Shown here: positions 6,722-52,261 of the stretch, piece after piece | Layout: each line of letters starts with the position of its first letter | Numbering within the stretch: position 1 is the stretch's first letter | From: Deltaproteobacteria bacterium | GTDB lineage: Bacteria > Myxococcota > Myxococcia > Myxococcales > SZAS-1 | Length of the DNA: 64,000 nucleotides | Direction: 5' to 3' | Assembly: GCA_018266075.1 (NCBI GenBank) | Contig: JAFEBB010000023.1 | Location: 18,407-82,406, forward strand | Notes under the pieces: generated by a model | Seen by the model: only the letters and a program-made list of their open reading frames with translations | The model's database searches: none | Told to the model about the DNA's origin: nothing | Made by a program: the position numbers and the translations under genes

Positions 6722-6751
6722 TTGACGCTTCCGTGAAGCGGCTGTTACCGT
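6722..6751 (+). promoter_or_regulatory. Candidate sigma-70-type promoter upstream of pilB
   Basis: TTGACG (6722-6727), an 18-nt spacer, then TACCGT (6746-6751, TAnnnT), about 60 nt upstream of the pilB ATG. Pattern match only. Confidence 0.25.
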
Positions 6752-6809
6752 TTTGCCTCCGCGCGCTGCCTCGCGCGCGCCCTCTTTCCGCCTCATCGGG
6801 AGAATCAGC

Positions 6810-8510
<1,701 letters not shown>

Positions 8511-8556
8511 TCATATCGAGATATAGCTCAATCCCGCAGTCCCGGAGCGCGTTTCC

Positions 8557-9663
8557 ATGGCAAATCTGCACCAGCTGTTGAAGGCGATGGTCGAGAAGGG
8601 CGCGAGCGATCTGCACATCACCACCGGCTCGCCACCGCAGCTGCGCATCGACGGCGACCTGGTGCCGCTCAAGACCGCCCCGCTCACGCCCGTGGAGACC
8701 AAGCAGCTCTGCTACTCGATCTTGACCGACGCGCAGAAGCACAAGTTCGAAGAGGACAACGAGCTCGACCTCTCCTTCGGCGTGAAGAGCCTCTCGCGCT
8801 TCCGCGCCAACATCTTTATGCAGCGCGGCGCGGTGGCGGGCGCGTTCCGAACCATTCCCTTCAAGATCTTGAGCTTCAACGAGCTCGGCCTGCCGCAGGT
8901 GGTGGCCGATCTCTCGAAGAAGCCGCGCGGCCTGATCCTGGTGACGGGACCGACCGGCTCGGGCAAGAGCACGACCCTGGCGTCGATCATCGACAAGATC
9001 AACACCGAGCGTCATGAGCACATCATGACCATCGAAGATCCCATCGAGTACCTGCACCCGCACAAGAACTGCCTGGTGAACCAGCGCGAGGTGGGCGCGG
9101 ATACCAAGAGCTTCAAGCTGGCGCTCAAGTACATCCTCCGGCAGGACCCCGACGTGGTGCTCATCGGCGAAATGCGAGACCTCGAGACCATCGAGGCGGC
9201 GCTCACCATCTCCGAGACCGGCCACCTGGCCTTCGGCACCCTGCACACCAACAGCTGCGTGCAGACCATCAACCGCATCCTCGACGTGTTCCCGCCCTAC
9301 CAACAGCCGCAGGTGCGCGCGCAGATGAGCTTCACGCTCGAGGGCGTGCTCAGCCAGGCGCTGATCCCGCGCGCTGGCCAGCCGGGCCGCATCCTGGGGC
9401 TGGAGGTCATGGTGCCCAACAGCGCCATCCGGAACCTCATCCGCGAGGACAAGGTCCACCAGATCTACTCGCAGATGCAGGTCGGCCAGGCCAAGTTCGG
9501 CATGCAGACCTTCAACCAGAGCCTCTTTGCGCTGCTCTCCAAGCGCATGATCACCCAGGACGAGGCCTTTGGCCGCTCGAGCGATCCCGAGGAGCTGCGC
9601 AACATGATCGCCAACGGCGGCAGCATGGCTCGGCCCGTCCAGACCCCGCAGGCGGCCCGGTAG
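8557..9663 (+). CDS. pilT: Type IV pilus retraction ATPase
   Basis: 368 aa. 'GASDLHITTGSPPQLRIDG', Walker A 'GPTGSGKSTT', 'LIGEMRDLETI', and the PilT signature 'AIRNLIREDKVHQIYS'. Confidence 0.95.
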   Translation: MANLHQLLKAMVEKGASDLHITTGSPPQLRIDGDLVPLKTAPLTPVETKQLCYSILTDAQKHKFEEDNELDLSFGVKSLSRFRANIFMQRGAVAGAFRTIPFKILSFNELGLPQVVADLSKKPRGLILVTGPTGSGKSTTLASIIDKINTERHEHIMTIEDPIEYLHPHKNCLVNQREVGADTKSFKLALKYILRQDPDVVLIGEMRDLETIEAALTISETGHLAFGTLHTNSCVQTINRILDVFPPYQQPQVRAQMSFTLEGVLSQALIPRAGQPGRILGLEVMVPNSAIRNLIREDKVHQIYSQMQVGQAKFGMQTFNQSLFALLSKRMITQDEAFGRSSDPEELRNMIANGGSMARPVQTPQAAR

Positions 9664-9703
9664 CCGGTCCTACCTGCACGCACCTCGGGGCAGGCCGGCT
9701 TTT
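9664..9703 (+). terminator. Possible intrinsic terminator or attenuator after pilT
   Basis: An interrupted stem CCGGtCCTaCC ... GGgGcAGGCCGG (9664-9698) is followed by CTTTT (9699-9703). The stem is imperfect. Confidence 0.35.
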
Positions 9704-9775
9704 GGGAGTTGAAGCGCGAATGGCGTAGCATGCGGACTGGGCAAAGTTCTGCCCACCGTTTTCGTGGAGGCAGCG

Positions 9776-11029
9776 ATGGCAGGCGCGCTGGCTGCAAAGC
9801 AGGCTGCGGGTACGGCCAAGAAGAACCCGGTCTACGTCTGGGAAGCCCGCACCAAGCAGGGCGAGACGAAGAAGGGCGAGATGGAGGCGGCCGACGCCGA
9901 GGCCGTGAACTCGCGCCTTCGCACCCTCGGCTACCAGCCGGTGAAGGTGAAGAAGAAGGCAACGGAAATCAACATCAAGCTGCCGGGCATGGGAGGCGTG
10001 TCCACCAAGGACATCGTCATCTTCACCCGTCAGTTCGCCACGATGATCGACGCAGGTCTGCCCCTGGTTCAGTGCCTCGACATCATCGCCGGGCAGACGG
10101 AGAACCTGTCCTTCAAAGAGGTGCTGTTCAAGGTGAAGGGCCGCGTCGAATCCGGCTCCACCTTCGCCGACGCGCTCAAGGACCACCCGAAGGTCTTCGA
10201 CGAACTCTATGCCCAGCTGGTGGCCGCGGGCGAGGTTGGCGGCATCCTCGACACCATCCTGAACCGCCTCGCGGCGTACATGGAGAAGAACGAGAAGCTC
10301 AAGCGCAAGGTGAAGGGCGCGATGGTCTACCCGACCATCGTGATCTGCGTAGCCATCGGCGTGACGGCCCTGCTCCTGCTCAAGGTCACCCCGACCTTCG
10401 AGAAGATGTTCAAGGACTTCCACAGCGAGATGCCGGCTCCCACGCAAATGGTCATCGACTTCTCGCACTGGGTGCAGGCCAACGTCCTCTACATGGCGGG
10501 AGGAATTGCTGTGTTGGTCGTCGCCTTCCAGCAGTTCTATCGGAACCCCAAGGGCCGGCGAATATGCGACAAGGTCTTCTTGATGGCGCCCATCATCGGG
10601 CCGGTGATCCGCAAGGTGGCGGTGGCGCGCTTCACCCGCACGCTGGGCACGATGATCAGCTCGGGCGTGCCCATCCTCGACGCGCTCGAGGTGACCGCGA
10701 AGACCGCCGGCAACCGCACCGTCGAAGACGCGATCTATTACACGCGCACCAAGATCTCCGAGGGCAAGACCATCACCCAGCCGCTCGAGGAGACCAACGT
10801 CTTCCCCAACATGGTGGTGCAGATGATCGGCGTCGGTGAGGCCACCGGCGCGATGGATCAGATGCTCAACAAGATCGCCGACTTCTACGACGACGAAGTC
10901 GACGTCGCCGTGGCCGGCCTCACCGCCATGATCGAGCCCTTGCTCATGGTGTTCCTGGGCGGCGTGGTCGGCGGCTTCCTCATCGCCATGTATCTGCCCA
11001 TCTTCTCGATCGCCGGCGCGATCAAGTAG
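9776..11029 (+). CDS. pilC: Type IV pilus platform (inner-membrane) protein
   Basis: ATG 9776 lies 5 nt after GGAGG (9766-9770). 417 aa. Duplicated GspF-type domains ('IFTRQFATMIDAGLPL', 'RFTRTLGTMISSGVPIL') and the C-terminal 'PLLMVFLGGVVGGFLIAMYLPIF'. Confidence 0.93.
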   Translation: MAGALAAKQAAGTAKKNPVYVWEARTKQGETKKGEMEAADAEAVNSRLRTLGYQPVKVKKKATEINIKLPGMGGVSTKDIVIFTRQFATMIDAGLPLVQCLDIIAGQTENLSFKEVLFKVKGRVESGSTFADALKDHPKVFDELYAQLVAAGEVGGILDTILNRLAAYMEKNEKLKRKVKGAMVYPTIVICVAIGVTALLLLKVTPTFEKMFKDFHSEMPAPTQMVIDFSHWVQANVLYMAGGIAVLVVAFQQFYRNPKGRRICDKVFLMAPIIGPVIRKVAVARFTRTLGTMISSGVPILDALEVTAKTAGNRTVEDAIYYTRTKISEGKTITQPLEETNVFPNMVVQMIGVGEATGAMDQMLNKIADFYDDEVDVAVAGLTAMIEPLLMVFLGGVVGGFLIAMYLPIFSIAGAIK

Positions 11030-11047
11030 GAGACGCGCGCGGCCAAC

Positions 11048-12741
11048 GTGCGCGGTTGCGACGTGGAAGAGCGCAGCGACCAGCGGGGCGAGCTCCACCG
11101 GCGGCTCGTCTGGCTGACGTTCTTCCGCCTCGCGGTGGTGCTGGTGCTCTTTGCGGCCAGCGTGATCTGGGGCTCCTCCAAGGAGCTTACGGATCCGGTG
11201 AGCTACCAGCTCATCGGCGTGTGCACGGCGGGCTTTCTGGCCACGCTCTTCTTTGCCGTGCTCTTGCGCTGGGGGCGCTGGCTCACCGGCATCGCCTACG
11301 CGGAGATCACCTTCGACGCGCTGCTGGCGATGGCGCTGGTGTACCTCACCGGCGGCTCCAACGCGTTCTCGTTCGTGTTCATCCTGGCGGTGGTGAACGC
11401 CGCCCTGGTGCTCTCGCAGCGCGGAGCGATCCTGGCGGCCTCGCTCTCGAGCTTGCTCTTCGCGGCGCTGCGCGTGGGGCTCAACGAGCGCTGGCTCATG
11501 CCGCCGGCGCCGTACCTGGAGGAGCCGCCCACGCCCACGGCGGCGCTCATCTTCACCATCTTCGTGAACCTGGGCGCGTTCTTCCTCATGGCCGCGCTGG
11601 CCAGCTACCTCGCTGACCAGATCCGCAAGAAGAGCGAGCAGCTCACCGCGCGCGAGCTCGACTTCGAGGCGCTGGCGGAGTTGCACTCGGCGATGCTCGC
11701 GTCGATCTCCAGTGGCATCGCCACCGCGGATCCCTCCGGGCGGCTGCTGTTCGTGAACCGCGCGGGCTGGGAGATCTGCGGCCCTTGGCAGAACCGGCAG
11801 GCGAGCACGGTGGTGGAGCTCTTGCCTGGGCTGGCGCTGCCTGCGGCCGGGAGCCCGGCGGTGCGGCAGGAGCTGGAGATCGCCGGCCGCGACGGCGAGC
11901 GGCGCTTCCTGGGGCTCACGGTGAGCCCGCTTCACGGCGGCGGCGCGTTCGCGGGCGGGCACGTGATCGTCTTCCAGGATCTCACCGAGCTGCGCCGGCT
12001 GGAGCTCGACGCCCGCCGCAACGAGCGCCTGGCCTCCATCGGCAAGCTCGCGGCGGGCCTGGCCCACGAGCTGCGCAACCCGCTGGCGAGCATGAGCGGC
12101 GCGGTGCAGATGCTCACCTCCAACAAGGCGGACGACCCGGACGAGCAGCGGCTCGGCGACATCGTGGTGAGCGAGACCGAGCGCCTCAACCGGCTGGTCA
12201 CCGACTTCCTCGGCTTCGCGCGCCCGAGCCCCAGCCGGCCGCTGCGGCTCGAGCTCGCCGAGGCCGTGGGCCAGACCCTCGACATCGTGGCCCACGGGCC
12301 GAAGTTCGAGGGCGTGAAGCTGGAGCGCGCGCTGGAGCCGGTGGAGGTGGTGGCCGACGCCGCGCAGCTGCGACAGGTGGTGTGGAACGTGGCGGTGAAC
12401 GCCGCCGAGGCCATGGGCGGCAAGGGCACCCTCAAGGTCTCGCTCCACCGCGAGGGTGAGGAGGCGCTGCTCACCATGGAGGACAGCGGGCCGGGCCTGC
12501 CCCGCGAGGTGATGGCCCAGCTCTTCGATCCCTTCTTCACCACCAAGGCGCAGGGTACCGGTCTCGGGCTGGCCACGGTGCACGCGCTGGTGGAGGCGCA
12601 CCGGGGCATGGTGCAGGCCGAGAACCGCGAGCAGGGTGGGGCGCGGTTCACGGTGCGGCTGCCGGTGGCGCCGCCGGCGCCGGCCGCGGACGACGCGCGC
12701 GACTCTCCGGGCGTTCCGGTGGCTCGGGAGGTGGCGGGCTG

Positions 12742-12742
<1 letters not shown>
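11048..12742 (+). CDS. pilS: Membrane sensor histidine kinase of the pilus two-component pair
   Basis: Multi-TM N-terminus, a PAS-like middle region, H-box 'LAHELRNPLASMSG', and HATPase N/G boxes ('NVAVNAAEAM', 'DSGPGL', 'GTGLGLA'). It sits between pilC and pilR. The GTG start at 11048 is uncertain (alternative GTG at 11063). Confidence 0.85.
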
Positions 12743-14115
<1,373 letters not shown>

Positions 14116-14178
14116 CAAAGTTTGTCAGCGCGATTCTTTCGGGACCGAAGTTTGGCACCTTGACCGGTCGCTAAGTCA

Positions 14179-14194
14179 TGGCAAACTCTCGGCT
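14179..14194 (+). promoter_or_regulatory. Candidate sigma-54 (-24/-12) promoter for pilA
   Basis: TGGCAAACTCTCGGCT has GG (14180-81), N10, then GC (14192-93), about 60 nt upstream of the pilA ATG and just downstream of the sigma-54 activator gene pilR. It is an imperfect match to TGGCACG-N4-TTGCW. Confidence 0.4.
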
Positions 14195-14255
14195 CGTCGG
14201 CGGCGCGAGCCGTGCATAGGCACGCTCTGCCGTCGTCAACCCCCACGGAGACCCA

Positions 14256-14963
14256 ATGACTCTCATGAAGAAGATGAAGAAGGGCTTTACCCTCATCGAG
14301 CTGATGATCGTCGTCGCGATCATCGGAATTCTGGCTGCCATCGCCATCCCGAACTTCATCAAGTTCCAGGCGCGCTCCAAGACGGGCGAGGCCAAGAGCA
14401 ACCTGAAGGGCTATTTCACCGCTGAGAAGGCGTACTACCAAGACCACGACGTCTTCTGCTCCGACATGACGAAGGTCGGCTTCAACCCGGAGCGCGGCAA
14501 CCGCTACGCCTACGACTTCAGCATCGCGGCGTTCAACAGCGGCCCGACCCTGCAGCAGGACCGCTCCGCGTCCACCCTCGACAGCACCACCGCCTTCTCG
14601 GGCATCCAGGTCGACACCTATAAGTACCCTCAGCTGAAGACCACCTACGTGGCCAACTCCGCGGGCACGGTGACCCTGGGCGCCCAGGACTCGGGGCACA
14701 CCGGCATCGGCGCGGTGAGCGCGGGCGGTCTGGTTGTCGCCAACTCCAACTCCACGGCCTTCGCCTCGTGCACCGCCAACAACGGTGACTTCGTCGGCTT
14801 CGCCTTCAGCGACATCGACAACGAGACCAAGGGCATCGACGGTTGGTTCGTGTCTTCGCAGAGCGGCAAGATCTCGAACGGCGGCTGCAAGAGCGTCGAC
14901 CTCGACCAGGTCGCCGAGGGCACCCCGGGCAACGTCTACAACGACGTGGACTGCGACAACTAA
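14256..14963 (+). CDS. pilA: Type IVa major pilin
   Basis: RBS GGAG lies 5 nt upstream. The prepilin leader is 'MTLMKKMKKG|FTLIELMIVVAIIGILAAIAIPNFIKFQARSK'. There is a large Ser/Thr/Gly-rich globular part and a C-terminal Cys pair ('GGCKSV...DVDCDN'). Confidence 0.95.
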   Translation: MTLMKKMKKGFTLIELMIVVAIIGILAAIAIPNFIKFQARSKTGEAKSNLKGYFTAEKAYYQDHDVFCSDMTKVGFNPERGNRYAYDFSIAAFNSGPTLQQDRSASTLDSTTAFSGIQVDTYKYPQLKTTYVANSAGTVTLGAQDSGHTGIGAVSAGGLVVANSNSTAFASCTANNGDFVGFAFSDIDNETKGIDGWFVSSQSGKISNGGCKSVDLDQVAEGTPGNVYNDVDCDN

Positions 14964-14990
14964 GCAGCAGCTCGGTCGTTTGTTCAAACT

Positions 14991-15030
14991 GCGGAGGGGG
15001 AGCGATAAGCTCCCCTTCCGCGCTTTTTTC
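14991..15030 (+). terminator. Rho-independent terminator after pilA
   Basis: 13-bp stem GCGGAGGGGGAGC / GCTCCCCTTCCGC with one G-U pair, loop GATAA, followed by a T6 run (15024-15029). Confidence 0.75.
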
Positions 15031-15046
15031 CGGAGGAGCGGCGTAC

Positions 15047-15970
15047 GTGAACAAGGCTGTCGCCCAGCCGCTCGTGCTCGCACTCGCACTGCTCGCGGGT
15101 GGTACCGGCTGGAACTACAAGTCCTTTGATCGACAGGCTCGCATCAAGGCGCGGTACACGGCCTCGCTGGTGGCGCTTCCCCGGCCCGAGGTGGTGCGCC
15201 TGCTCTCGCTCGGGTTCCGCCACGTCTTGGCCGACTGGTACTGGATCAAGGGCGTGAACTACTTCGGCGACGGCCGCAATACCGCTGTGGCCTACGCCGA
15301 GTTCTATAATTACCTCAAGCTCGTCACCGACCTCGACCCGCAGTACTACCCGGCCTACCTCTTCGGCGGCTACGCCCTGCCCTGGAACCGCGGCGACAAG
15401 TGGGTGAACACCCAGGAGACGGCCTGGCTGCTGGAGGACGGGATCAAGAATTTCCCGGCGGCCTGGCAGCTGCGCTTCCAGCTGGCGTACGTGTACTCGG
15501 CGTACCTGCACCGCTACAAGGAGGCGGGGGACCAGCTCGCCGCGGCCGCCCGGCTGCCGGGCTCGCCGCCGTTCCTGGGCACGCTCGCCACCCGGATGTA
15601 CGCCACCACCGGCGACCTCGAGGGCGCCGAGTTGCTTGCCGAGCACCTCATGCGCGATGCCGAAGACCCGCGCGTCGCCGCGCTCATGCGGCGGCGGCTG
15701 ATGGAGCTGCGCGCAGCCAACCAGGGGCAGGCGCTCACCCAGGCGGCTGCGAAGTTCGCGGCGGCCCACGGGGGACACTTCCCCGCCTCGCTCGCCGAGC
15801 TCGAGCAGGCGGGCGTGGCCATCCCTGTGGAGCCCCTGGGCGGGTCGTGGAACTATGACCCCGCCACAGGAACCGTGAAGTCCTCGGTGCTCAAGGAGCG
15901 CCTCGACATCTACATCCATCCCCGCGAGGCCGCGCAGGCCTCCGCCACGAACTCCGATGCCCGCCACTAG
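15047..15970 (+). CDS. pilG: PilG-like accessory protein of the PilGHI ABC system
   Basis: GTG 15047 lies after GGAGGAG (15032-15038). One N-terminal TM helix, then a helical repeat-like domain. It sits between pilA and the ABC ATPase, the position of pilG in M. xanthus as I recall. The name is assigned by synteny only. Confidence 0.6.
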   Translation: MNKAVAQPLVLALALLAGGTGWNYKSFDRQARIKARYTASLVALPRPEVVRLLSLGFRHVLADWYWIKGVNYFGDGRNTAVAYAEFYNYLKLVTDLDPQYYPAYLFGGYALPWNRGDKWVNTQETAWLLEDGIKNFPAAWQLRFQLAYVYSAYLHRYKEAGDQLAAAARLPGSPPFLGTLATRMYATTGDLEGAELLAEHLMRDAEDPRVAALMRRRLMELRAANQGQALTQAAAKFAAAHGGHFPASLAELEQAGVAIPVEPLGGSWNYDPATGTVKSSVLKERLDIYIHPREAAQASATNSDARH

Positions 15971-16898
15971 CGTCATCGTCGTCGACAACCTGGAGAAGAA
16001 GTTCGACCTGGGCCCGCGCAAGGACCGCGCCTTCAGCGCGGTGGCCGCGGTGTCGTTCCAGGTCGAGCCCAACACCGCCTTCGGCTTCCTGGGGCCCAAC
16101 GGCGCGGGAAAGACCACCACCATCAAGATGCTCACCGGGCTCATCTTTCCCACGGCGGGAAGGGTGACCGTGCTGGGCGGCGCCCCGAGCGACGCAGCGG
16201 TGCGCGCGCGGTTTGGCTACCTCCCGGAGAACCCGAGCTTCCCGGATCACCTCACCGGCGCGGAGATCCTGCGCTTCGCGTGTGAGCTACTGGGGCTGCC
16301 GCGCGCCCGGATCGCCGCCGAGGTGGAGCGCTGCCTGGCGCTGGTGGATCTCAAGCGCGCCGCGAATCTCCAGGTGCGCAAGTACTCCAAGGGCATGGTG
16401 CAGCGCGTGGGCATTGCCCAGGCGCTCCTGGGCAGCCCCGAGTTGGTGATCCTCGACGAACCGATGTCGGGTCTCGACCCCATTGGACGCCGCGACATCA
16501 AGGACCTCATCCTGTCGCTGCGTCGCGAGGGCAAGACCGTCTTCTTCTCCACGCACATCATCTCGGACGTGGAGGAGATCTGCGACGACGTGGCCATCAT
16601 CGTGAACGGCAAGATCGCGCGGAAGGGCCGGGTGAGCGACCTCCTCGGGGGCACACGCCGGGAGACGGAGATCACCGCGCGCGACCTGCCTGGCGACTTC
16701 CCGGGACGGAAGGGTGAGGGGGCCACTGCCACGCTGGTCGTGGATGGTGAGACGGAACTGCGCGCCACCATGGAGCGCATCTTCGCCGCGGGGGGCCAGG
16801 TGTTGGCGGTGCGGCCGCGGCGATATGGCCTCGAGGACGTGTTCCTGGAGGAGGTTCGCAAGGAGCCCAACCGCCCCATGCCGGTGGGTGAGTCATGA
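15957..16898 (+). CDS. pilH: ABC transporter ATP-binding protein
   Basis: Walker A 'GPNGAGKTTT', signature 'YSKGMVQRVGIAQAL', Walker B 'LVILDEP'. It overlaps pilG by 14 nt. Confidence 0.85.
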   Translation: MPATSVIVVDNLEKKFDLGPRKDRAFSAVAAVSFQVEPNTAFGFLGPNGAGKTTTIKMLTGLIFPTAGRVTVLGGAPSDAAVRARFGYLPENPSFPDHLTGAEILRFACELLGLPRARIAAEVERCLALVDLKRAANLQVRKYSKGMVQRVGIAQALLGSPELVILDEPMSGLDPIGRRDIKDLILSLRREGKTVFFSTHIISDVEEICDDVAIIVNGKIARKGRVSDLLGGTRRETEITARDLPGDFPGRKGEGATATLVVDGETELRATMERIFAAGGQVLAVRPRRYGLEDVFLEEVRKEPNRPMPVGES

Positions 16899-17662
16899 AC
16901 GGCATCTTCGTGATCGCGCGCATGAGCTTCATCGAGGCGCGGCGCAACCGCATCACCTGGTCGCTCGTCTTCTTCTGTCTGGTGCTGGTGCTCACCAGCT
17001 TCCTCTTCCAGGAGGTGACGATCGCGTCGTTCGACCGCATCGTCCGCGACGTGGGCATGGCGGGCATCAACATCTTCGGGGTGATGCTCTCGGTATTTCT
17101 GGGGGTGAGCGTGGTCACGCGCGAGATCGAGCGGCGGTCGGTCTACGTGCTCCTGGCCAAGCCCCTCACCCGGGTGCAGTACCTCTTGGGCAAGCTCCTG
17201 GGGGTGTGGCTCACCGTGGGCGCGTGCCTGGTGTTGATGATGGTGGCCTTCATCTTCGAGACCACGGTGTATCGCGGGCCCATCGCGCCGGTGATGTTCC
17301 AGGCGTTCTGGCTGCTGCTGGTGGAGCTCCTGGTGCTGGCGAGCTTTGCCATCCTGGCGAGCACCTTCACCTCGTCGGTGATGTCCGCGTTCGTGACCCT
17401 CTCGCTCTACGTGATCGGGCACCTCTCGGAGGATCTGTACTTCTTTGGCCGCAAGTCGGCCTCGCCGGTGATGAGGGTGCTGGGCGAGGTGCTCTTCTTC
17501 GTGCTTCCGAACCTCGAGAGGCTCAATCTCAAGGGCCAGGTCTCGCTCCTCGAGCCTGTGGGCAGCGGCCAGGTGGTGGGGGCCACGCTCTACGGGCTGG
17601 TCTATGTGGCGTGCTTCATGGGGTTGGCCATCGCCGTGTTCATCCGGCGCGACCTCAAGTAG
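16895..17662 (+). CDS. pilI: ABC-2 type transporter permease
   Basis: ATGA overlap with pilH. 255 aa with about 6 hydrophobic helices ('ITWSLVFFCLVLVLTSFLF' and others). Confidence 0.8.
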   Translation: MNGIFVIARMSFIEARRNRITWSLVFFCLVLVLTSFLFQEVTIASFDRIVRDVGMAGINIFGVMLSVFLGVSVVTREIERRSVYVLLAKPLTRVQYLLGKLLGVWLTVGACLVLMMVAFIFETTVYRGPIAPVMFQAFWLLLVELLVLASFAILASTFTSSVMSAFVTLSLYVIGHLSEDLYFFGRKSASPVMRVLGEVLFFVLPNLERLNLKGQVSLLEPVGSGQVVGATLYGLVYVACFMGLAIAVFIRRDLK

Positions 17663-23662: not shown

Positions 23663-25440
23663 AGCGCCGCTTCCGCATTCTGTGGCGCGGCGCGCACGTG
23701 CTGAACGTGCTCGCGTTCCTCGCGTTCTTCGCGTTCGTGGTGGCGAGCAACGACTTCGACTGGGACCACTTCTTGACCGGTGCCGAGGTCGATCGGCGCG
23801 CCTGGGTCATCGATCACGAGCCCCCTGTGTGGTCGTACCAGCTCTGCGGCGGCGTGACGCGCGCCGGTGATCCTCAAGCGTTCGGTCTCTCGCCGCTCTT
23901 CCTCTGGGTCGTGCCCCAGGGCTCGTTCTGGGGACTCAAGACAGCCTGGCTCGCGCTGGCGGTGCTGGGCTTCGTGTCGCTTCGGAGGATTCTGAGCATC
24001 TTCTTGCTGGGGGGGGTCGCGAGGGAGCTCCGCAAGAGCGAGCGCCTCGCGCTGGATTGGGTGAGCCTCGCGTTCGTGCTCGGCAACTACTTTCTCTGGC
24101 ATGCGCATGAGGGCCACCTCACAATCGCGCTCGGGTTCCTCGGGTTGGCGATTATCGAGAAGCTCTTCAGCGCCTTCGCTCACGGATTTCGTTGGCGCTC
24201 CGCCGTCGCGGCGACCTTGATGACCTGGGCGTATGTCTCCGGCGGGTTCTACCACTCGCTGGTGTTCTTCATTGCGCCGCTCTCCTTGGCGCTGATTCTG
24301 GGCGTGGGTTGGAGTCTCGTGGCGCAAAGGGCGCGCCGCCTCCCGCCGGTGGGGAACTGGTCGGCGCTGGCAAAACTAGCGACCGCGTGCGTTCTGGGTA
24401 TCGGGATCGGTTTCTATAAAGTGTATGCGGTTGCCAGCTATCAGGCCCTGCTGCCACGTACCACCACGCACGCGGTCAATGGAGTTGACGGGGCGGGCCC
24501 GTTGCAGACGCTGGTGTATCAGTTGGTGCCGTCGCTGGACGGGGCCTTTCTCGGCGGATTTCGTGGCTGGCCGCCATGGGGAATCTGGGAGACGAGCGCG
24601 TTCAACCTGAACGCCTGGGGCCTGCTCATCGCGGCGGGCCTTACGCTGATCTGGCGCGCGCGTGGTCAGAGCCTCGCAGCGGAGCGCCGCTCGAGCAACG
24701 GCGGCCCGCTCAGGCACTCGCTCGTGGTGGTAACTGCGATCGTCGGGGCGGTGGGGCTCTGGTTCTCCCTGGGTGAGCTCGCCCCGATCTCCGGTTTTGA
24801 GGTGCTGAACCGGCTCACCCACAACTCCGTCCGCGTGGCTGGGCGCTTCCAGATCCTGTTTGGGCTCGCGGCGGCCATGGGGCTCGCGCTGCTGCTGGGG
24901 CGTAGCAGGCGCCTCGCGCACCAGTTTGCGAAGTATGGAGCCTGGACGGCTCCTGTGTTGCTGGTGCTGAATCTCACTTCGTTCCTATCGACGCTCCGGC
25001 CCGAGTCGGCGCGCTCTATCCTCTCGGCACCGAAGGATCCGATCGCGCATATGAATACGCTTCGGGTGGGCCGTGAGCGCAGCGAGGATCACTCGTACAT
25101 GTACCGCTCGATCCTGCGTGGGATCGCGATGCTCAACTGCTACGACCCGATCGCCCGCGAGACGCGGCTGGTCCGCGAGTTCGTGGGCCGGCCCGAGTTC
25201 ATGAATGGCTCGGGCCACCTGCAGGACGGCACCGTGCTCCCGCTGATCGACCCCCAGGTGGGCTCGCCGCCGGAGAGCTGCCGGGCAGGGAGCTACTTCA
25301 CCCAGAACCGGATCGTGATGGACGCGAGCTGCCCCGTGGGCACCTGCGTGAACGCCAACGGCCTCAACCTCTGGGGTGACTCGCGGCTGGTGCTGAACAC
25401 CGAGTTGAACAAGTATTGCCTCGGTTCTTCCTCGAGGTGA
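23659..25440 (+). CDS. Polytopic membrane protein, distantly YfhO-like
   Basis: GTGA overlap with the upstream gene. 593 aa. 'VWSYQLCGGVTRAGDPQAFGLSPLFLWV' resembles the YfhO 'WS..LGG...SPFNLL' region. Many TM helices and a C-terminal soluble part containing Cys. Confidence 0.65.
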   Translation: MKRRFRILWRGAHVLNVLAFLAFFAFVVASNDFDWDHFLTGAEVDRRAWVIDHEPPVWSYQLCGGVTRAGDPQAFGLSPLFLWVVPQGSFWGLKTAWLALAVLGFVSLRRILSIFLLGGVARELRKSERLALDWVSLAFVLGNYFLWHAHEGHLTIALGFLGLAIIEKLFSAFAHGFRWRSAVAATLMTWAYVSGGFYHSLVFFIAPLSLALILGVGWSLVAQRARRLPPVGNWSALAKLATACVLGIGIGFYKVYAVASYQALLPRTTTHAVNGVDGAGPLQTLVYQLVPSLDGAFLGGFRGWPPWGIWETSAFNLNAWGLLIAAGLTLIWRARGQSLAAERRSSNGGPLRHSLVVVTAIVGAVGLWFSLGELAPISGFEVLNRLTHNSVRVAGRFQILFGLAAAMGLALLLGRSRRLAHQFAKYGAWTAPVLLVLNLTSFLSTLRPESARSILSAPKDPIAHMNTLRVGRERSEDHSYMYRSILRGIAMLNCYDPIARETRLVREFVGRPEFMNGSGHLQDGTVLPLIDPQVGSPPESCRAGSYFTQNRIVMDASCPVGTCVNANGLNLWGDSRLVLNTELNKYCLGSSSR

Positions 25441-40914: not shown

Positions 40915-41991
40915 ATGCTCGGCCCGGTGACAGCACTCGTGCTCGCCGCTGCGCCGGCGGACTTCGACGCGCGCGTGATGCGCTTCGTGCACGAGGACAA
41001 GCTGCCGCCGGGGATCGCGCTCTACGTCGCCGATGGGAAGATCGCCGCGGTGAAGGCCTGGGGCGCGCGCGCCGACGACGAGAAGCTCACGCCCGAAGCC
41101 GACGCGCTCTTCCGCATCGGTTCGAACACGAAGACCTTCACGGCCCTCGCCATCCTCGCGCTGCGCGACGCCGGCAAGCTCTCGCTCGACGACCCGCTCA
41201 CGAAGTGGATCCCCGAAGCGAAGCCGCGCCCCGCGCACGAGGGCGATCGCGCGCCGAACGTTCGCGATCTCTTGCAGCACCGCTCGGGTTTGCCGCGCGC
41301 GGGCTCGCTGCTGTGGCGGCAAATCACCAACAAGTCGATCAGCGACGAGGACGTGGTGTCAGCGCTGAGCGTGAAGCTCGAGGACGCACCGGGCGCGATG
41401 AAGACGTACTCGAACCTCGGCTACGCGGCGCTGGGGATGATCGTCGCGCGAGCGAGCGGCATGCCGTACGCCGAGTACGTGAAGCAGCACGTGCTCGCGC
41501 CGCTGGGCATCACTGACGCGGTCTGGCGCGCGGAGGACGTGCCCCCTGCGAAGCGAATCCATGGCCACGAGTCGCGCTTCTTCGGCGGGTGGAAGGTCGA
41601 CGACGACGAGTGGCACCTCGGCACCATGGACGCCGCGGGCGGGCTCTACGCGAGCGCCAACGACATGGCCCAGCTCGCGCTCTTCGAGCTCGGCCAGCGC
41701 GACGGGCCGGTGAAGCCGGAGACCGTTCGCGAGAGCCAGCAGGCCGCGGACCCGACGCTCGGCAAGTCGGGCGGGATGGGCTGGGATCTCGTCGTCGCCG
41801 GAAAGAGCCACATCATCTACAAGAATGGCGGCATGAACGCGTGGAACTCGGGGCTGGTGATTCACCCCGAGAAGCGCGTGGCGCTGGTGCTCTTGCTCGC
41901 GGGCAAGTCCGAGCACGTCGACGAGGCCGCGCTGGGGATACTTAAAGATTTGGTTACATCGCCGGGCGCGCCCGATGCCGGCGCGAAGTGA
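40915..41991 (+). CDS. Serine hydrolase (class C beta-lactamase / PBP4-like family)
   Basis: S-x-x-K 'FRIGSNTKTFTALAIL', 'YSNLGYAALG' (Y-x-N), 'KNGGMNAWNS' (KTG-like). Confidence 0.8.
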   Translation: MLGPVTALVLAAAPADFDARVMRFVHEDKLPPGIALYVADGKIAAVKAWGARADDEKLTPEADALFRIGSNTKTFTALAILALRDAGKLSLDDPLTKWIPEAKPRPAHEGDRAPNVRDLLQHRSGLPRAGSLLWRQITNKSISDEDVVSALSVKLEDAPGAMKTYSNLGYAALGMIVARASGMPYAEYVKQHVLAPLGITDAVWRAEDVPPAKRIHGHESRFFGGWKVDDDEWHLGTMDAAGGLYASANDMAQLALFELGQRDGPVKPETVRESQQAADPTLGKSGGMGWDLVVAGKSHIIYKNGGMNAWNSGLVIHPEKRVALVLLLAGKSEHVDEAALGILKDLVTSPGAPDAGAK

Positions 41992-43329
41992 TCACCTCTT
42001 CGCGTCGAGCGCGGCCAGATCCTTCTTCAGCCGCTCGACCGTGTGCGGATTGCGCTGACCCGCGGGCAGCTTCTCGGCAAACGTGATGGCGTCTTGCAGC
42101 GTCTTGCGCGCCTCGGCCGGCTTGTTCATGCGCTGGTAGATCTCGGCGCGATTGGAGAGCACGCGCAGCGTCCGCGGGCCGTAGACCTTCTGCAGCGCGC
42201 GGTTGTTGGCCGCGAGCGCGTCGTCGAGCTTGCCGAGCTCCAGATAGATGAGCGCCTCGCGCGCGGGCGGGTTGTAGTCGTCGGGCAGGTCCTTCTCCGA
42301 CTGCTGCAGCGCCGGCAGCGCACGCGCCGGATCGCCCACGGCGATCGACGCCACCACGCGATGCGGATCGAACGCGGCGCGCTCTTGTGGCGTCTTGGCC
42401 TTGGCCGCTTCCGACTCGAGGAACGCCAGCCACTCGCCCGCGAGCTTCTTCTTGCCCGCGAGATCGCCCACGTGCTCGCGCAGGTCGACGAGCGTCTCGT
42501 AGATGCCCGAGCGATCGTCACCGAGCAGCCCGGGGATCTTCAGCGCACCTTCCGCGAGCGGAACCAGCGCCTGCAACGCCTCGGTGCGCGCGGGCGAAGC
42601 GGGCGAGTCGCTCGCGCACTGCAGGCCCGTGGCGACCAGATTCGCGTACGCCGAGCCCTGCTGCATCGTGGGCGCGCGCTCGCGCGCGAGGTGCGCGCAG
42701 CCCGCGAGGTCGTTCGTCTCTTGCAGCGCGAAGTCGAGCGACTGGAGCACGCGCGGCGCGTCGGCCCAATTCGCGCCGCCTTGAGTGAGCGCGTCCCTAT
42801 AGAGCTTGGCGGCGGCCGCGTGATCGTCCTTTGCCTCGGCGGCGTCGGCAGCCGCGAGCGTCTTCTGCGCTTGATCCGCGTGCGATGGATCCAGCGCGCG
42901 CGCGCCGTCATCCAGCAGCCCGCCCAGATCGCTGGCGTTGGCGCTGCCCAGCCACTTCAGCACCACGGCCTCATGCTGCGGATCAATGACCAGCAGCGTG
43001 GGCCACGCAGAGATCGGAAACTTCTCCTGGAACGCGGCGTTCTTTTCCTTCTCGGTGTCGACGCTGAGCCAGACGAACCGTCCGGCGTGCTTCGTGAGCG
43101 CCGCGTCGGTGAAGACGTAGGCGCGCATGAAGCGGCAGGTGTGTCACCAGGGCGCCCAGACATCGACGAAGAGCGGCAGCTTCTTCGCCTTCGCCTCGGC
43201 CAGCGCGCGGCCGTAGTCGTCCTCGATGAACGGCAGCGCCTCGGTCGAGGCGGCCGCGGGCGAGTGGCTGGGGGCTGGGGGCTGGGGGCTGGCAGCAGCG
43301 ACAGCCAACGCGAGGATGGCAGCGTGCAT
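41992..43329 (-). CDS. Periplasmic thioredoxin-fold (Thioredoxin_7-like) + TPR protein with a single in-frame TGA at the first Cys of the W-C-x-x-C motif (candidate selenoprotein; alternative is a pseudogene)
   Basis: Two same-frame ORFs (43144-43329 region and 41992-43128) are separated only by TGA 43144-43146. The joined reading is '...KKLPLFVDVWAPW[TGA]HTCRFMRAYVFTDAAL...'. RBS GGAAGG lies upstream of ATG 43329 and the signal-like N-terminus is 'MHAAILALAVAAA'. TPR-like repeats occupy the C-terminal two thirds. Confidence 0.6.
43090..43132 (-). other. Extended mRNA hairpin starting 11 nt downstream of the in-frame UGA (SECIS-like candidate)
   Basis: mRNA CUUC-A-UG-C-GCGCC-UA-CGUC-[UUCACC]-GACG-C-GGCGC-U-CA-C-GAAG: about 15 bp in four helical segments with a 6-nt apical loop. 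The position fits bacterial SECIS spacing, but the loop has no G, unlike the fdhF-type consensus. Confidence 0.4.
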
Positions 43330-43343
43330 CGTTAACCTTCCTG

Positions 43344-50350: not shown

Positions 50351-52261
50351 ATGAACCTCCAACGCACGTTGATGGCGCTCTTGCCGCTGGCCGTCGCGAT
50401 CCAGCTCGGCTGTGGAAAGAGCAATCCTGCCGCGGCCAGCGGATCTTCGGGAACCACGGCGGCCACCGCGGCGGGTGCGGCCGGTGCCACCGGCGCCAGC
50501 GGCGGCTCGACCGGTGGCGCCACCACGGGCGCGACCGGCACGACCGGCGCGACCGGCACCTCGGCGACCACCGGGACCACCGCGAGCACCACGGGCAGCA
50601 CCGGCGCGGCATGTGGCAGCCAGACCTGCGGCGCCAACCAGATCTGTCAGGGTGGCACCTGCGTGAATTGCGGCGGCGCGGGCGAGGCTTGTTGCGCGGC
50701 TGGCGCGTGCGACAGCGGCAACCGCTGCGCGAACAACGTGTGCACCGCATGCGGCGCGGCGGGCGAGGCCTGCTGCACCGGCCGCACCTGCACCGCCACG
50801 GGCACCGTTTGCCAGGGCGGCAACGCCGGCACCTGCGCGCTCTGCGGCGGGCCCGGCGAGCCCTGCTGCGGCACCAACAGCTGCGACTCGGGCGGCTGCT
50901 GCGTGAACAACACCTGCGTGGGCTCGGGCTCCACCTGTCCCAACCTGGGCGGCACCTGCGCCGCCGGCGCCTGCGGCAGCTGCGGCGCGGCCGGTGACGC
51001 GTGCTGCGCCAACCAGACCTGCACCGCGTCGGCCACCGCGTGCTCCAACAACAGCTGCGTGGCCTGCGGCGGCGCGAGCCAGCCCTGCTGCGCGGGCCAG
51101 ACCTGCAGCGCGTCCGGGACTGCGTGCGGCACCAACAACACCTGCGTGGCCTGCGGCGGTGCGGGCGAGCCCTGCTGCGCCGGCAACAGCTGCACCGCGG
51201 CGGGCACGTCCTGCGACGGCAACACCAACCAGTGCGTGGCCTGCGGCGGTGCGGGCGAGGCCTGCTGCCCGGGCGACACCTGCACCGCGGCCGGCACGGC
51301 CTGCAACGGCAACGGGACCTGCGTGGCCTGCGGCGGCGCGGGCGAGGCCTGCTGCGCGGGCAACACCTGCTCCAGCGGCTGCTGTGATGCCCAGGGCAGC
51401 CGCACCTGCATCGCCGCGGGCCAGACCTGTGGCAACGGCGGCACCTGCGGGGCCTCGGGCCAGTGCACCTCCTGCGGCGGACCCTCCCAGGCGCCGTGTC
51501 CGGGCGGGACTTGCTCGGGCGGCGGGTGCGTGGACCCCTCGACGCAGACCTGCCTGCCCTCAGGCACCGGCCCTGTGTCCGGCAGCACCGTCTGCGTGGC
51601 AGGGAGCCTCCAGGCCTGCGGCGGCGCGGGCCAGCCCTGCTGCGCCGGCGATGCCTGCGGGACCAGCGGCTGCTGCGTGGCGGGCACCTGCGTGGCCTCG
51701 GGTGGCTCCTGCGGCGCGAACCTGGGCACCTGCGGCGCCAGCGGCTGCAGCCAGGGCGGGAACAACGCCTGCGGGGCCCTCGGTCAGAACTGCTGCGGCG
51801 GCGGCAACCTCGGCGGCTTCTGCGTGGTGAGCGGCTCGGTCTGCACCGGAGGCGGCGACACCTGCGCGGCCTGCGGCGGCGCCGGCCAGGCCTGCTGCGC
51901 GAACAACGCCTGCGGCTCCGGCGGCTGCTGCGCGCAAGGGACCTGCGTGAGCGCTGGCAACGCCTGCACCAACGGCGGCACCTGCCAGGCCAACAGCTGC
52001 GGCACCTGCGGCGGCCTCGGCCAGCCCTCCTGCGGCGGCGGCGGCGGCGGCGGCTGCACCGCGCCGTACACCGTCTCCCGCAACGGCACCTGCGTGGCCT
52101 GCGGCGGCGCGGACCAGCCCTGCTGCGGCGGCGACAGCTGCGGCCAGGGCTACGAGTGCGGCGGCAACGGCACCTGCCAGACCTGCGGCGGCTCCGGAGA
52201 GCGCTGCTGTGGCGGGGTGCTCTGCGCCAACGGGACCTGCAACCAGGGCCGCTGTCTATGA
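50351..52261 (+). CDS. Hyper-cysteine/glycine-rich modular lipoprotein (about 16 C-G-G-x-G-x-x-C-C modules)
   Basis: GAGGA RBS. 'MNLQRTLMALLPLAVAIQLGC' signal/lipobox. A G/T/A-rich linker of about 65 aa is followed by about 550 aa with about 108 Cys (hand count). GC3 is consistent with coding. Confidence 0.8.
   Translation: MNLQRTLMALLPLAVAIQLGCGKSNPAAASGSSGTTAATAAGAAGATGASGGSTGGATTGATGTTGATGTSATTGTTASTTGSTGAACGSQTCGANQICQGGTCVNCGGAGEACCAAGACDSGNRCANNVCTACGAAGEACCTGRTCTATGTVCQGGNAGTCALCGGPGEPCCGTNSCDSGGCCVNNTCVGSGSTCPNLGGTCAAGACGSCGAAGDACCANQTCTASATACSNNSCVACGGASQPCCAGQTCSASGTACGTNNTCVACGGAGEPCCAGNSCTAAGTSCDGNTNQCVACGGAGEACCPGDTCTAAGTACNGNGTCVACGGAGEACCAGNTCSSGCCDAQGSRTCIAAGQTCGNGGTCGASGQCTSCGGPSQAPCPGGTCSGGGCVDPSTQTCLPSGTGPVSGSTVCVAGSLQACGGAGQPCCAGDACGTSGCCVAGTCVASGGSCGANLGTCGASGCSQGGNNACGALGQNCCGGGNLGGFCVVSGSVCTGGGDTCAACGGAGQACCANNACGSGGCCAQGTCVSAGNACTNGGTCQANSCGTCGGLGQPSCGGGGGGGCTAPYTVSRNGTCVACGGADQPCCGGDSCGQGYECGGNGTCQTCGGSGERCCGGVLCANGTCNQGRCL
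50612..52258 (+). repeat. Tandem coding repeats (modules of about 28-50 codons) of the Cys-rich lipoprotein
   Basis: DNA blocks recur nearly identically, for example 'tgcgtggcctgcggcggtgcgggcgagccctgctgcgc' near 51140, 51230 and 51318. Protein modules read 'CVACGGAGEPCCAGNSCTAAGTSC...'. Confidence 0.85.

Follow-up and report, generated by a model that had tools for sequence, protein, structure and literature searches.

A Putative Exported Thioredoxin-TPR Selenoprotein of Myxococcota and Acidobacteriota with Two Conserved RNA Hairpins Downstream of Its UGA Codon

We analyzed a 64,000-nucleotide (nt) stretch of myxococcal DNA (assembly GCA_018266075.1, contig JAFEBB010000023.1, positions 18,407 to 82,406; here called the window) and found that its minus strand very probably carries, from 43329 to 41992, one gene for a 445-residue selenoprotein, in which an in-frame UGA codon at 43146-43144 would be decoded as selenocysteine (Sec). 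Judging from its domains and its relatives, the product most likely works outside the cytoplasm as a thiol-disulfide oxidoreductase whose tetratricopeptide repeat (TPR) domain binds clients. The selenoprotein interpretation had been put forward in a sequence-only reading of the window, and it drew support here from a conserved TGA, purifying selection on both sides of it, covarying RNA structure, and the interspersion of cysteine (Cys) forms and Sec forms among relatives.

Results

We re-read the minus strand directly and confirmed the arrangement proposed earlier, i.e., a ribosome-binding site followed by two open reading frame (ORF) halves in a single frame. This frame runs from the ATG at 43329 to the stop at 41992 and is interrupted solely by the TGA at 43146-43144, so that the complete gene (41992-43329, minus strand) has 445 codons plus the stop, with Sec as codon 62. 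The 61 codons from the ATG to the TGA encode an N-terminal part, MHAAILALAVAAAS...KKLPLFVDVWAPW, ending in ...LPLFVDVWAPW. Past the TGA, the frame reads CAC ACC TGC CGC TTC ATG (H-T-C-R-F-M, opening HTCRFMRAYVF...) and continues for 383 further codons with no other stop; the motifs quoted in the sequence-only reading, including FVWLSVDTEKEKNAAFQEKF and WPTLLVIDP, were all present as described. Gene callers divide the window gene into a 61-amino-acid (aa) ORF and a 378-aa ORF, the latter counted from the first ATG past the TGA. The putative Sec codon (43144-43146) encodes residue 62, the first position of U-H-T-C, and aligned with the Cys of WAPWCHTC homologs; indeed, full-length homologs have the first Cys of WAPW-C-HTC exactly at the position of the TGA, in agreement with its placement at the first Cys of a W-C-x-x-C motif. 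The resolving Cys-65 of the U-x-x-C motif (TGC, 43135-43137) was Cys in all 95 of the Sec forms collected below and was invariant in the alignment of Cys forms.

A protein search with the joined sequence (both halves) returned >1,600 relatives, most of them 430 to 460 aa long, annotated as "thioredoxin family protein," derived from Myxococcota, and reading WAPW-C-HTC. Seven matches (52 to 91% identity) were just 376 to 389 aa long and had no thioredoxin domain. The contigs of all seven contained a small upstream ORF (49 to 64 aa) ending 15 nt ahead of the downstream ORF, and in every case its stop was a TGA at the identical codon, with WAPW before it, HTCRF after it, and both halves conserved. 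Besides, an exact 24-nt pattern across the TGA was present in 24 species-representative genomes, all with the signal-thioredoxin-TPR architecture, although the first 21 nt after the UGA are invariant by ascertainment in these 24 loci, a restriction that applies neither to the 7 protein-derived loci nor to the 71 metagenome loci described next. The 24 genomes belong to Anaeromyxobacteraceae, Myxococcaceae, Polyangia, and other Myxococcales metagenome-assembled genomes (MAGs), together with eight Acidobacteriota/Bryobacterales MAGs. An independent sample came from metagenomes scanned with two peptide patterns as seeds, which lie far from the redox motif and do not involve the Cys codon; it yielded 80 loci, of which 71 had TGA, 8 had TGC or TGT, and 1 was unclassifiable. 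Pooling the 7 protein-search loci, the 24 species genomes, and the 71 metagenome loci gave 95 distinct TGA-form sequences. As to whether orthologs carry TGC or TGA at this codon, which the sequence-only reading had proposed to check, they do not all carry TGC, and TGA occurs in 95 distinct sequences of Myxococcota and Acidobacteriota. On this evidence, it is very likely that the TGA is a genuine and widely conserved Sec codon.

We also observed that in the Acidobacteriota/Bryobacterales MAGs (loci L012, L013, L014, L018, L021, L029, L030, and L032 in our numbering) the 24 nt around the UGA of the Sec form are identical to those of Myxococcota, for which horizontal transfer, an ancient origin, or binning errors may account.

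Both halves of the gene are under purifying selection. Compared with a 91%-identical relative, the ratio of nonsynonymous to synonymous substitution rates (dN/dS) was 0.025/0.216 (about 0.12) over the 36 codons preceding the TGA; after it, the ratio was 0.058/0.354 (about 0.16). Neither frameshifts nor decay was seen in any relative examined. Codons on either side of the TGA are therefore constrained, which the sequence-only reading had proposed to check for the downstream ones. The 26 codons after the UGA stood out by a dS of 0 to 0.1 versus 0.6 to 1.0 across the remaining gene. In the comparison with L005, dS was 0 in these codons as opposed to 0.97 outside them, and in that with L002 it was 0.06 versus 0.61; since these two loci came from the protein search, the collapse of dS is free of pattern ascertainment.

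The 83 nt from the UGA onward fold, in the window, into two adjoining hairpins with a minimum free energy (MFE) of -37.6 kcal/mol (z = -4.37; none of 200 shuffles was as good). Hairpin H1 (43089-43133, minus strand) is a 45-nt imperfect stem-loop recovered in both MFE and centroid structures; it begins 10 nt past the UGA and bears its apical loop, UUCACC, at a distance of about 30 nt from that codon. Hairpin H2 (43068-43086, minus strand; GCCGGAC-GGUUC-GUCUGGC) has a stem of 7 to 8 bp and a loop at 43079-43075, in which G43078 and U43077 are invariant. The layout of H1 followed by H2 appeared in the own MFE fold of all 95 sequences, with some register shifts in H1, which starts 5 to 12 nt after the UGA and ends 0 to 2 nt before H2. 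The sequence-only reading had proposed a search for an RNA element within 43080-43146; the structure is indeed present there, but it reaches to 43068, past the 43080 limit.

Covariation backs H1 and H2 alike, and H1 is stable as well. When the 95 sequences were aligned on the window's structure, 88.2% of the cells were paired versus 34 to 49% with the partners slid, and the covariation score was matched by none of 500 shuffles. Double compensatory changes were found at nine H1 pairs and two H2 pairs (e.g., pair 24-48, CG in 52 sequences and GC in 22), and H2 pair 66-74 was AU in 45, GU in 30, and GC in 17, with no A-C. H2, in which 97% of the cells were paired, was the sole RNAalifold consensus over the 95 sequences and the sole element in strict register. 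Codon usage in H2 was restricted accordingly: the Ala codon was GCC (91 sequences) or GCT (4) and never GCG; Gly was GGA (46) or GGG (44) and never GGC; Arg was CGG in 63 sequences (with the Gln codon CAG in 32) and never CGC; and Val was GTC (76) and never GTG. Elsewhere in the segment, the codons barred from H2 were commonly used for these amino acids. In four of the Acidobacteriota/Bryobacterales MAGs (L013, L029, L030, and L032), the closing pair of H2 is present as a compensatory CAG/TTT variant.

A first RNAalifold run with 30 sequences also suggested a small hairpin that includes the UGA itself; we rejected it, as the search pattern had fixed its columns and most sequences did not show it in their MFE folds. 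Rfam gave no match of a Sec insertion sequence (SECIS) to H1 or H2, with nothing meaningful in the region at an E value of ≤10 and nothing at gathering scores in the whole 64-kb window.

The Cys forms served as a control for the RNA structure. Seven of them (L043, L048, L074, L075, L113, L114, and L115) lacked H2. L113 and L114 encode the peptide AGRFVWL, identical to that of the Sec forms, but with GGC and CGC codons that destroy H2. The H1 region was weak in five of the seven (MFE, -7 to -15 versus a Sec-form mean of -26.8), whereas L114 (-24.2) and L115 (-20.5) were within the Sec-form range (-36.3 to -19.7). Thus, at the level of sequence, the RNA structure is tied to the TGA state, because Cys forms with the same peptide lose H2 and most of the H2-less forms are weak in H1. 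Both hairpins were kept in four other Cys forms with a TGC or TGT codon (L045, L064, L093, and L107), which suggests that these hairpins are "fossil" SECIS elements left by recent Sec-to-Cys conversions; L064 is 83% identical to the Sec form L053, which is consistent with a recent change. Besides, L048 and L115 are 81% and 79% identical, respectively, to the Sec form L065. Cys forms are thus scattered among Sec forms, implying several independent exchanges, and such interspersion is, as far as sequences can tell, the classic pattern of Cys/Sec exchange.

We compared H1 and H2 with the bacterial SECIS (bSECIS) consensus, which comprises a 3- to 9-nt apical loop on a 4- to 16-bp stem with an MFE of ≤-7.5 kcal/mol, a G in the first two loop positions, a loop of N1-G-[G/U]-N-N2 with N1 and N2 pairing, and a UGA-to-loop spacing of 16 to 37 nt (PMC13188914). 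H2, with a mean MFE of -11.4, a stem of 7 to 8 bp, and a loop of 3 to 5 nt, falls within the stem-loop limits (3 to 9 nt, 4 to 16 bp, ≤-7.5), and its loop, R-G-U-U-Y, fits the consensus loop pattern in 95 of 95 sequences, with the G and the first U invariant. The flanking R/Y pair was G-C or A-U in 74 of the 95, including cases in which a synonymous change of TTC to TTT accompanied that of CGG to CAG. Thus, the consensus-type loop expected of a bSECIS was found, but the canonical spacing with that loop was absent.

Further H2-like hairpins were sought in 540 kb of the relatives' DNA as possible marks of other selenoprotein genes; the matches outside the family, among them a few GGUCC-loop hairpins, had no plausible UGA context and were rejected as chance. 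In three closely related loci (L017 at about 2793-2822, and L034 and L035 at about 765-795), an H2-like hairpin, GUCCAGGC-GGUUC-GCCUGGGC, located about 900 nt upstream of the selenoprotein gene, is part of an ordinary ORF; no in-frame TGA is nearby, and it probably arose by chance.

When the TGA was read as Cys, residues 36 to 117 (43224-42979, minus strand) matched Pfam Thioredoxin_7 (PF13899) with 39.2 bits versus a cutoff of 27, and because this match spans the TGA, the codon lies inside one thioredoxin fold. Other Pfam matches were Thioredoxin, Thioredoxin_2, TPR_12, and, in the C-terminal part, several further TPR families. The fold contains, besides U62-H-T-C65, a W-P-T motif with the predicted cis-Pro-110 at 43002-43000, and both the W-P-T and the U/C-H-T-C motifs are conserved in the family. 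Pfam TPR families, a structural model, and Foldseek together indicate an all-alpha TPR-like superhelix at about residues 140 to 445 (42912-41995, minus strand). The AlphaFold model was that of a Cys ortholog, P0008 (13-sequence alignment; pLDDT, 91.7), and it shows a disordered N terminus, a beta-alpha-beta thioredoxin fold at residues 30 to 125, and a continuous all-alpha TPR superhelix at residues 127 to 432 with 16 or more helices and a pLDDT of >90. The profile, the motif, and the cis-Pro of a Thioredoxin_7 oxidoreductase were all found. The best matches by sequence among solved structures were 2KUC, a "putative disulphide-isomerase" (1.1e-11), and the periplasmic gamma domain of DsbD (about 5e-6). 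The top Foldseek match by E value was YbbN/CnoX of Escherichia coli (3QOU; E value, 9e-6; TM-score, 0.20 to 0.29; rmsd, 24.8), and the remaining ones were generic TPR superhelices.

The first residues, MHAAILALAVAAASPQ... (43329-43246, minus strand), form a predicted N-terminal export signal region. At the family level, 75 of 78 distinct N termini of Sec forms carried a signal-peptide-like hydrophobic segment, and 22 had a lipobox, as called by regular expression rather than by a trained predictor; many were textbook signal peptides, e.g., MKKLLAVLLLTAAPALA. Because of these segments and lipoboxes, the family is considered to be exported, and the periplasmic location suggested for the window protein thus gained support from the family as a whole.

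A Shine-Dalgarno-like motif, AGGAAGG (43336-43342, minus strand), was read from the sequence 6 nt 5' of the ATG and may serve as the ribosome-binding site; the stop TAA of the upstream gene (43346-43344) sits directly ahead of it. That upstream gene, on the same strand, encodes a 717-aa Ig-like secreted protein. The true terminator of the selenoprotein gene is likewise a TGA (41994-41992, minus strand) and adjoins the stop of a convergent beta-lactamase-family gene (40915-41991, plus strand). Since TGA works as a normal stop in the window, including for the selenoprotein gene itself, a reassigned genetic code is not the explanation of the internal TGA. In two relatives that are 63 to 73% identical, L002 (6627-11146) and L004 (354-3679), an ECF sigma factor, a protein of about 169 aa, and an STN/DUF8173 protein precede the selenoprotein gene on the same strand, and an Mpo1-like gene follows it. 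A conserved operon partner was considered and rejected, as the 717-aa Ig-like protein of the window is unrelated to the DUF8173/STN gene of L002 and L004.

The window has a GC content of about 69% and contains a Myxococcus-like pil cluster and housekeeping genes. The type IV pilus cluster, similar to that of Myxococcus xanthus, occupies 6726-17662 on the plus strand and encodes, in order, a T2SSE ATPase with MshEN (PilB-like), a second T2SSE (PilT-like), a T2SSF protein (PilC-like), a PilS-like histidine kinase, a sigma-54 response regulator (PilR-like), a PilA pilin, an ABC ATPase, and an ABC-2 permease. This cluster indicates that the window originates from Myxococcota.

A second in-frame TGA (51784-51786, minus strand) was noticed between ORFs 51784-52149 and 50647-51783, with coding-like sequence of high third-position GC on both sides. 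It lies in a low-complexity stretch rich in Pro and Gln (...PPRLPPPQQF[TGA]PRAPQALFPP...), with no Pfam match on either side and no Cys context, and could reflect two adjacent genes, a pseudogene, or a frame artifact. Another in-frame TGA, at 25438-25440 (plus strand) and flanked by two ORFs of one frame, was rejected as a recoding site; it is an ordinary stop, followed by the ATG (25450) of a family-2 glycosyltransferase.

Discussion

The Sec interpretation has to be weighed against several observations that speak against it or against parts of it. selA, selB, selD, and a tRNA for Sec (tRNA-Sec) were not found in the 64-kb window with ARAGORN, Pfam, and Rfam: the window has no tRNA according to ARAGORN, and Pfam found no SelA, SelB, or SelD among about 40 window ORFs. 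The loop of H2 lies 64 to 65 nt from the UGA, beyond the 16 to 37 nt allowed, whereas that of H1 is at 28 to 31 nt but variable, with the required G among its initial two nucleotides in only 21 of 95 sequences; therefore, no single hairpin combines all four bSECIS properties, the spacing being the one that fails. In addition, the design of the sampling makes the sets overlap, the 24 genome loci having been chosen by a pattern that covers the 21 nt next to the UGA on its 3' side. As for the protein, the n-region of the window protein's own signal peptide is at most weakly basic, and the redox and TPR client-binding roles are assigned by domain homology only.

How the RNA would serve Sec insertion can be read in two ways. 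The reading that we prefer, although we would put it at somewhat less than an even chance, is that the SECIS is bipartite, with a SelB-binding H2 located 57 nt (19 codons) downstream and brought back to the mRNA entrance of the ribosome by the conserved H1. Under this reading, H1 and H2 together would act as a bacterial SECIS that recruits SelB-GTP-Sec-tRNA(Sec) while the UGA is in the A site. H2 would offer the SelB-type loop, and the closed H1 would probably, in spite of the linear distance of 57 nt, keep H2 close to where the mRNA channel opens; as a closed spacer, H1 would leave the base of H2 spatially about 5 to 12 plus 0 to 2 nt from the UGA, comparable with 11 nt in E. coli. A rather unlikely alternative is that H1 alone is the SECIS, with a lineage-specific loop read by a divergent SelB, and that H2 serves otherwise, e.g., by blocking the ribosome helicase, stabilizing the mRNA, or binding another factor. 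The H1 loop, at 28 to 31 nt, does lie inside the 16- to 37-nt rule, H1 covaries and is weakened in most Cys forms, and a subset of bSECIS elements falls outside the model, many being unlike one another (PMC13188914); against this, the H1 loop is highly variable and seldom has the required G, and it is H2 alone that is in strict register with invariant G and U loop nucleotides.

It is improbable that the UGA is recoded other than as Sec, e.g., by a near-cognate Trp or Cys tRNA, or that two separate polypeptides are made, with the hairpins as a pause or regulatory element. The lack of Sec machinery in the window and the off-model spacing would suit such readings. However, the site is the catalytic Cys of a CxxC motif, a textbook site of Cys/Sec exchange, the H2 loop is of the SelB-type consensus in 95 of 95 sequences, and a split product would cut the thioredoxin fold between beta1 and alpha1. 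Furthermore, the host lineages are documented users of Sec: Anaeromyxobacter dehalogenans is reported to have 11 selenoproteins, two thioredoxins and a DsbA-like protein among them, and Acidobacteria use Sec too (PMC1794560).

The sequence-only reading had named a nonsense mutation or a sequencing error as the alternative to Sec, and both fail in view of the recurring TGA, the selection, and the independent assemblies. A TGC-to-TGA mutation that turned a Cys-type thioredoxin-TPR gene of the window strain into a pseudogene is highly improbable; Cys forms with TGC or TGT do exist and a single base change interconverts them, but the same TGA recurs in 95 distinct sequences from two phyla, both halves have a dN/dS of ≤0.2 against the closest relative with no frameshifts, and the TGA forms share a conserved downstream RNA structure that is specific to them. 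An error of sequencing or assembly in one base of the TGA, which indeed differs from TGC by a single base, has a negligible probability, as the identical codon occurs in independent ENA, JGI, NCBI, and Logan assemblies made with different technologies.

If the selenoprotein is made as proposed, it would be exported via its signal peptide, many relatives being, by their sequences, lipoproteins. The selenolate of U-H-T-C, on a Thioredoxin_7 fold with a cis-Pro, would be the nucleophile of an extracytoplasmic thiol-disulfide oxidoreductase, and the TPR superhelix of about 300 residues may hold clients, giving a "chaperedoxin" architecture like that of CnoX/YbbN outside the cytoplasm.

These results bear on annotation, since every database copy examined is split at the TGA into a stub of 49 to 64 aa and a "TPR protein" of about 380 aa. 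A redox enzyme common in soil bacteria is hidden by this split, the Sec form outnumbering the Cys form by 71 to 8 in the metagenome sample. With the 95-sequence alignment as a basis, a protein model and a covariance model dedicated to the family would allow systematic reannotation. Biologically, the envelope redox systems of Myxococcota and Acidobacteriota would gain in this family an exported, Sec-dependent oxidoreductase that probably binds clients, and the repeated Sec/Cys exchange among close relatives makes the family a natural system for studying the benefit of Sec over Cys outside the cytoplasm. The two-hairpin element is a testable case of the distance that may separate a bacterial SECIS loop from its UGA and of the RNA architecture that permits it. 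If the element is truly bipartite, it would be a natural exception to the strict UGA-SECIS spacing rule derived from E. coli and would represent a class invisible to bSECISearch-type tools, and the exported selenoproteins of aerobic soil Myxococcota and Acidobacteriota would have been systematically undercounted.

Comparison with known systems

The family appears to be uncatalogued, although it was not set against the two "thioredoxin" selenoproteins counted for A. dehalogenans in 2006. No NCBIfam model reached its cutoff for the window protein, the best scores being 30 to 37 bits versus cutoffs of 96.8 to 805 (thioredoxin, 96.8; TrxC, 125; DsbD, 330; and TsoB, 805). A 2026 inventory of prokaryotic selenoprotein families had no entry matching TPR, "repeat," or PF13899, and a full-text literature search (TPR, or words beginning with Myxococc, together with selenoprotein) gave no description of the family. 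A similar catalogued combination is the Trx7/PDZ (seleno)protein family NF041199, which likewise joins a Thioredoxin_7-type domain to a protein interaction domain and has Sec in its redox motif. However, its partner domain is PDZ instead of TPR, and its motif is CxxU, with Sec second, instead of UxxC; the window protein, which scored 11.7 bits versus a cutoff of 300 and has no PDZ domain, is not a member.

Among redox proteins, the periplasmic disulfide reductases and isomerases of the Thioredoxin_7 type (DsbD gamma and 2KUC) share the periplasmic site and the W-C-x-x-C context, but they consist of a single domain or belong to the membrane protein DsbD, contain only Cys, and have no TPR domain. 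The chaperedoxin CnoX/YbbN (3QOU), after which JGI names several of the homologs, has the same order of an N-terminal thioredoxin fold and a C-terminal TPR domain. Yet CnoX is cytoplasmic, whereas the window family is exported; the TPR domain of the window family is about twice as long, and the comparison with 3QOU did not place the window protein in that family. E. coli CnoX is not known to have a canonical CxxC, whereas the window protein has U/C-H-T-C together with the cis-Pro.

With regard to the RNA, the canonical bSECIS (the E. coli fdhF type and the bSECISearch consensus) likewise lies inside the ORF as a stem-loop that follows the UGA, and H2 has the 5-nt loop N1-G-U-U-N2. Moreover, H1 starts 10 nt after the UGA, close to the 11 nt given for the minimal element of E. 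coli (PMC8659212). The difference is that here a second conserved hairpin of 45 to 50 nt stands between the UGA and the consensus-type loop, which is consequently 64 to 65 nt off.

Thioredoxin-fold proteins with a UxxC motif are the commonest kind of bacterial selenoprotein. The window protein resembles them in having a putative Sec at the N-terminal Cys position of CxxC, in the coexistence of Cys orthologs, in hosts from the former Deltaproteobacteria and Acidobacteria, and in a putative SECIS inside the coding region just past the UGA; it differs from them in its TPR superhelix of about 300 residues and its export signal. Thus, the UxxC thioredoxin-fold kind is known, and the RNA element is possibly a new variant of the bacterial SECIS.

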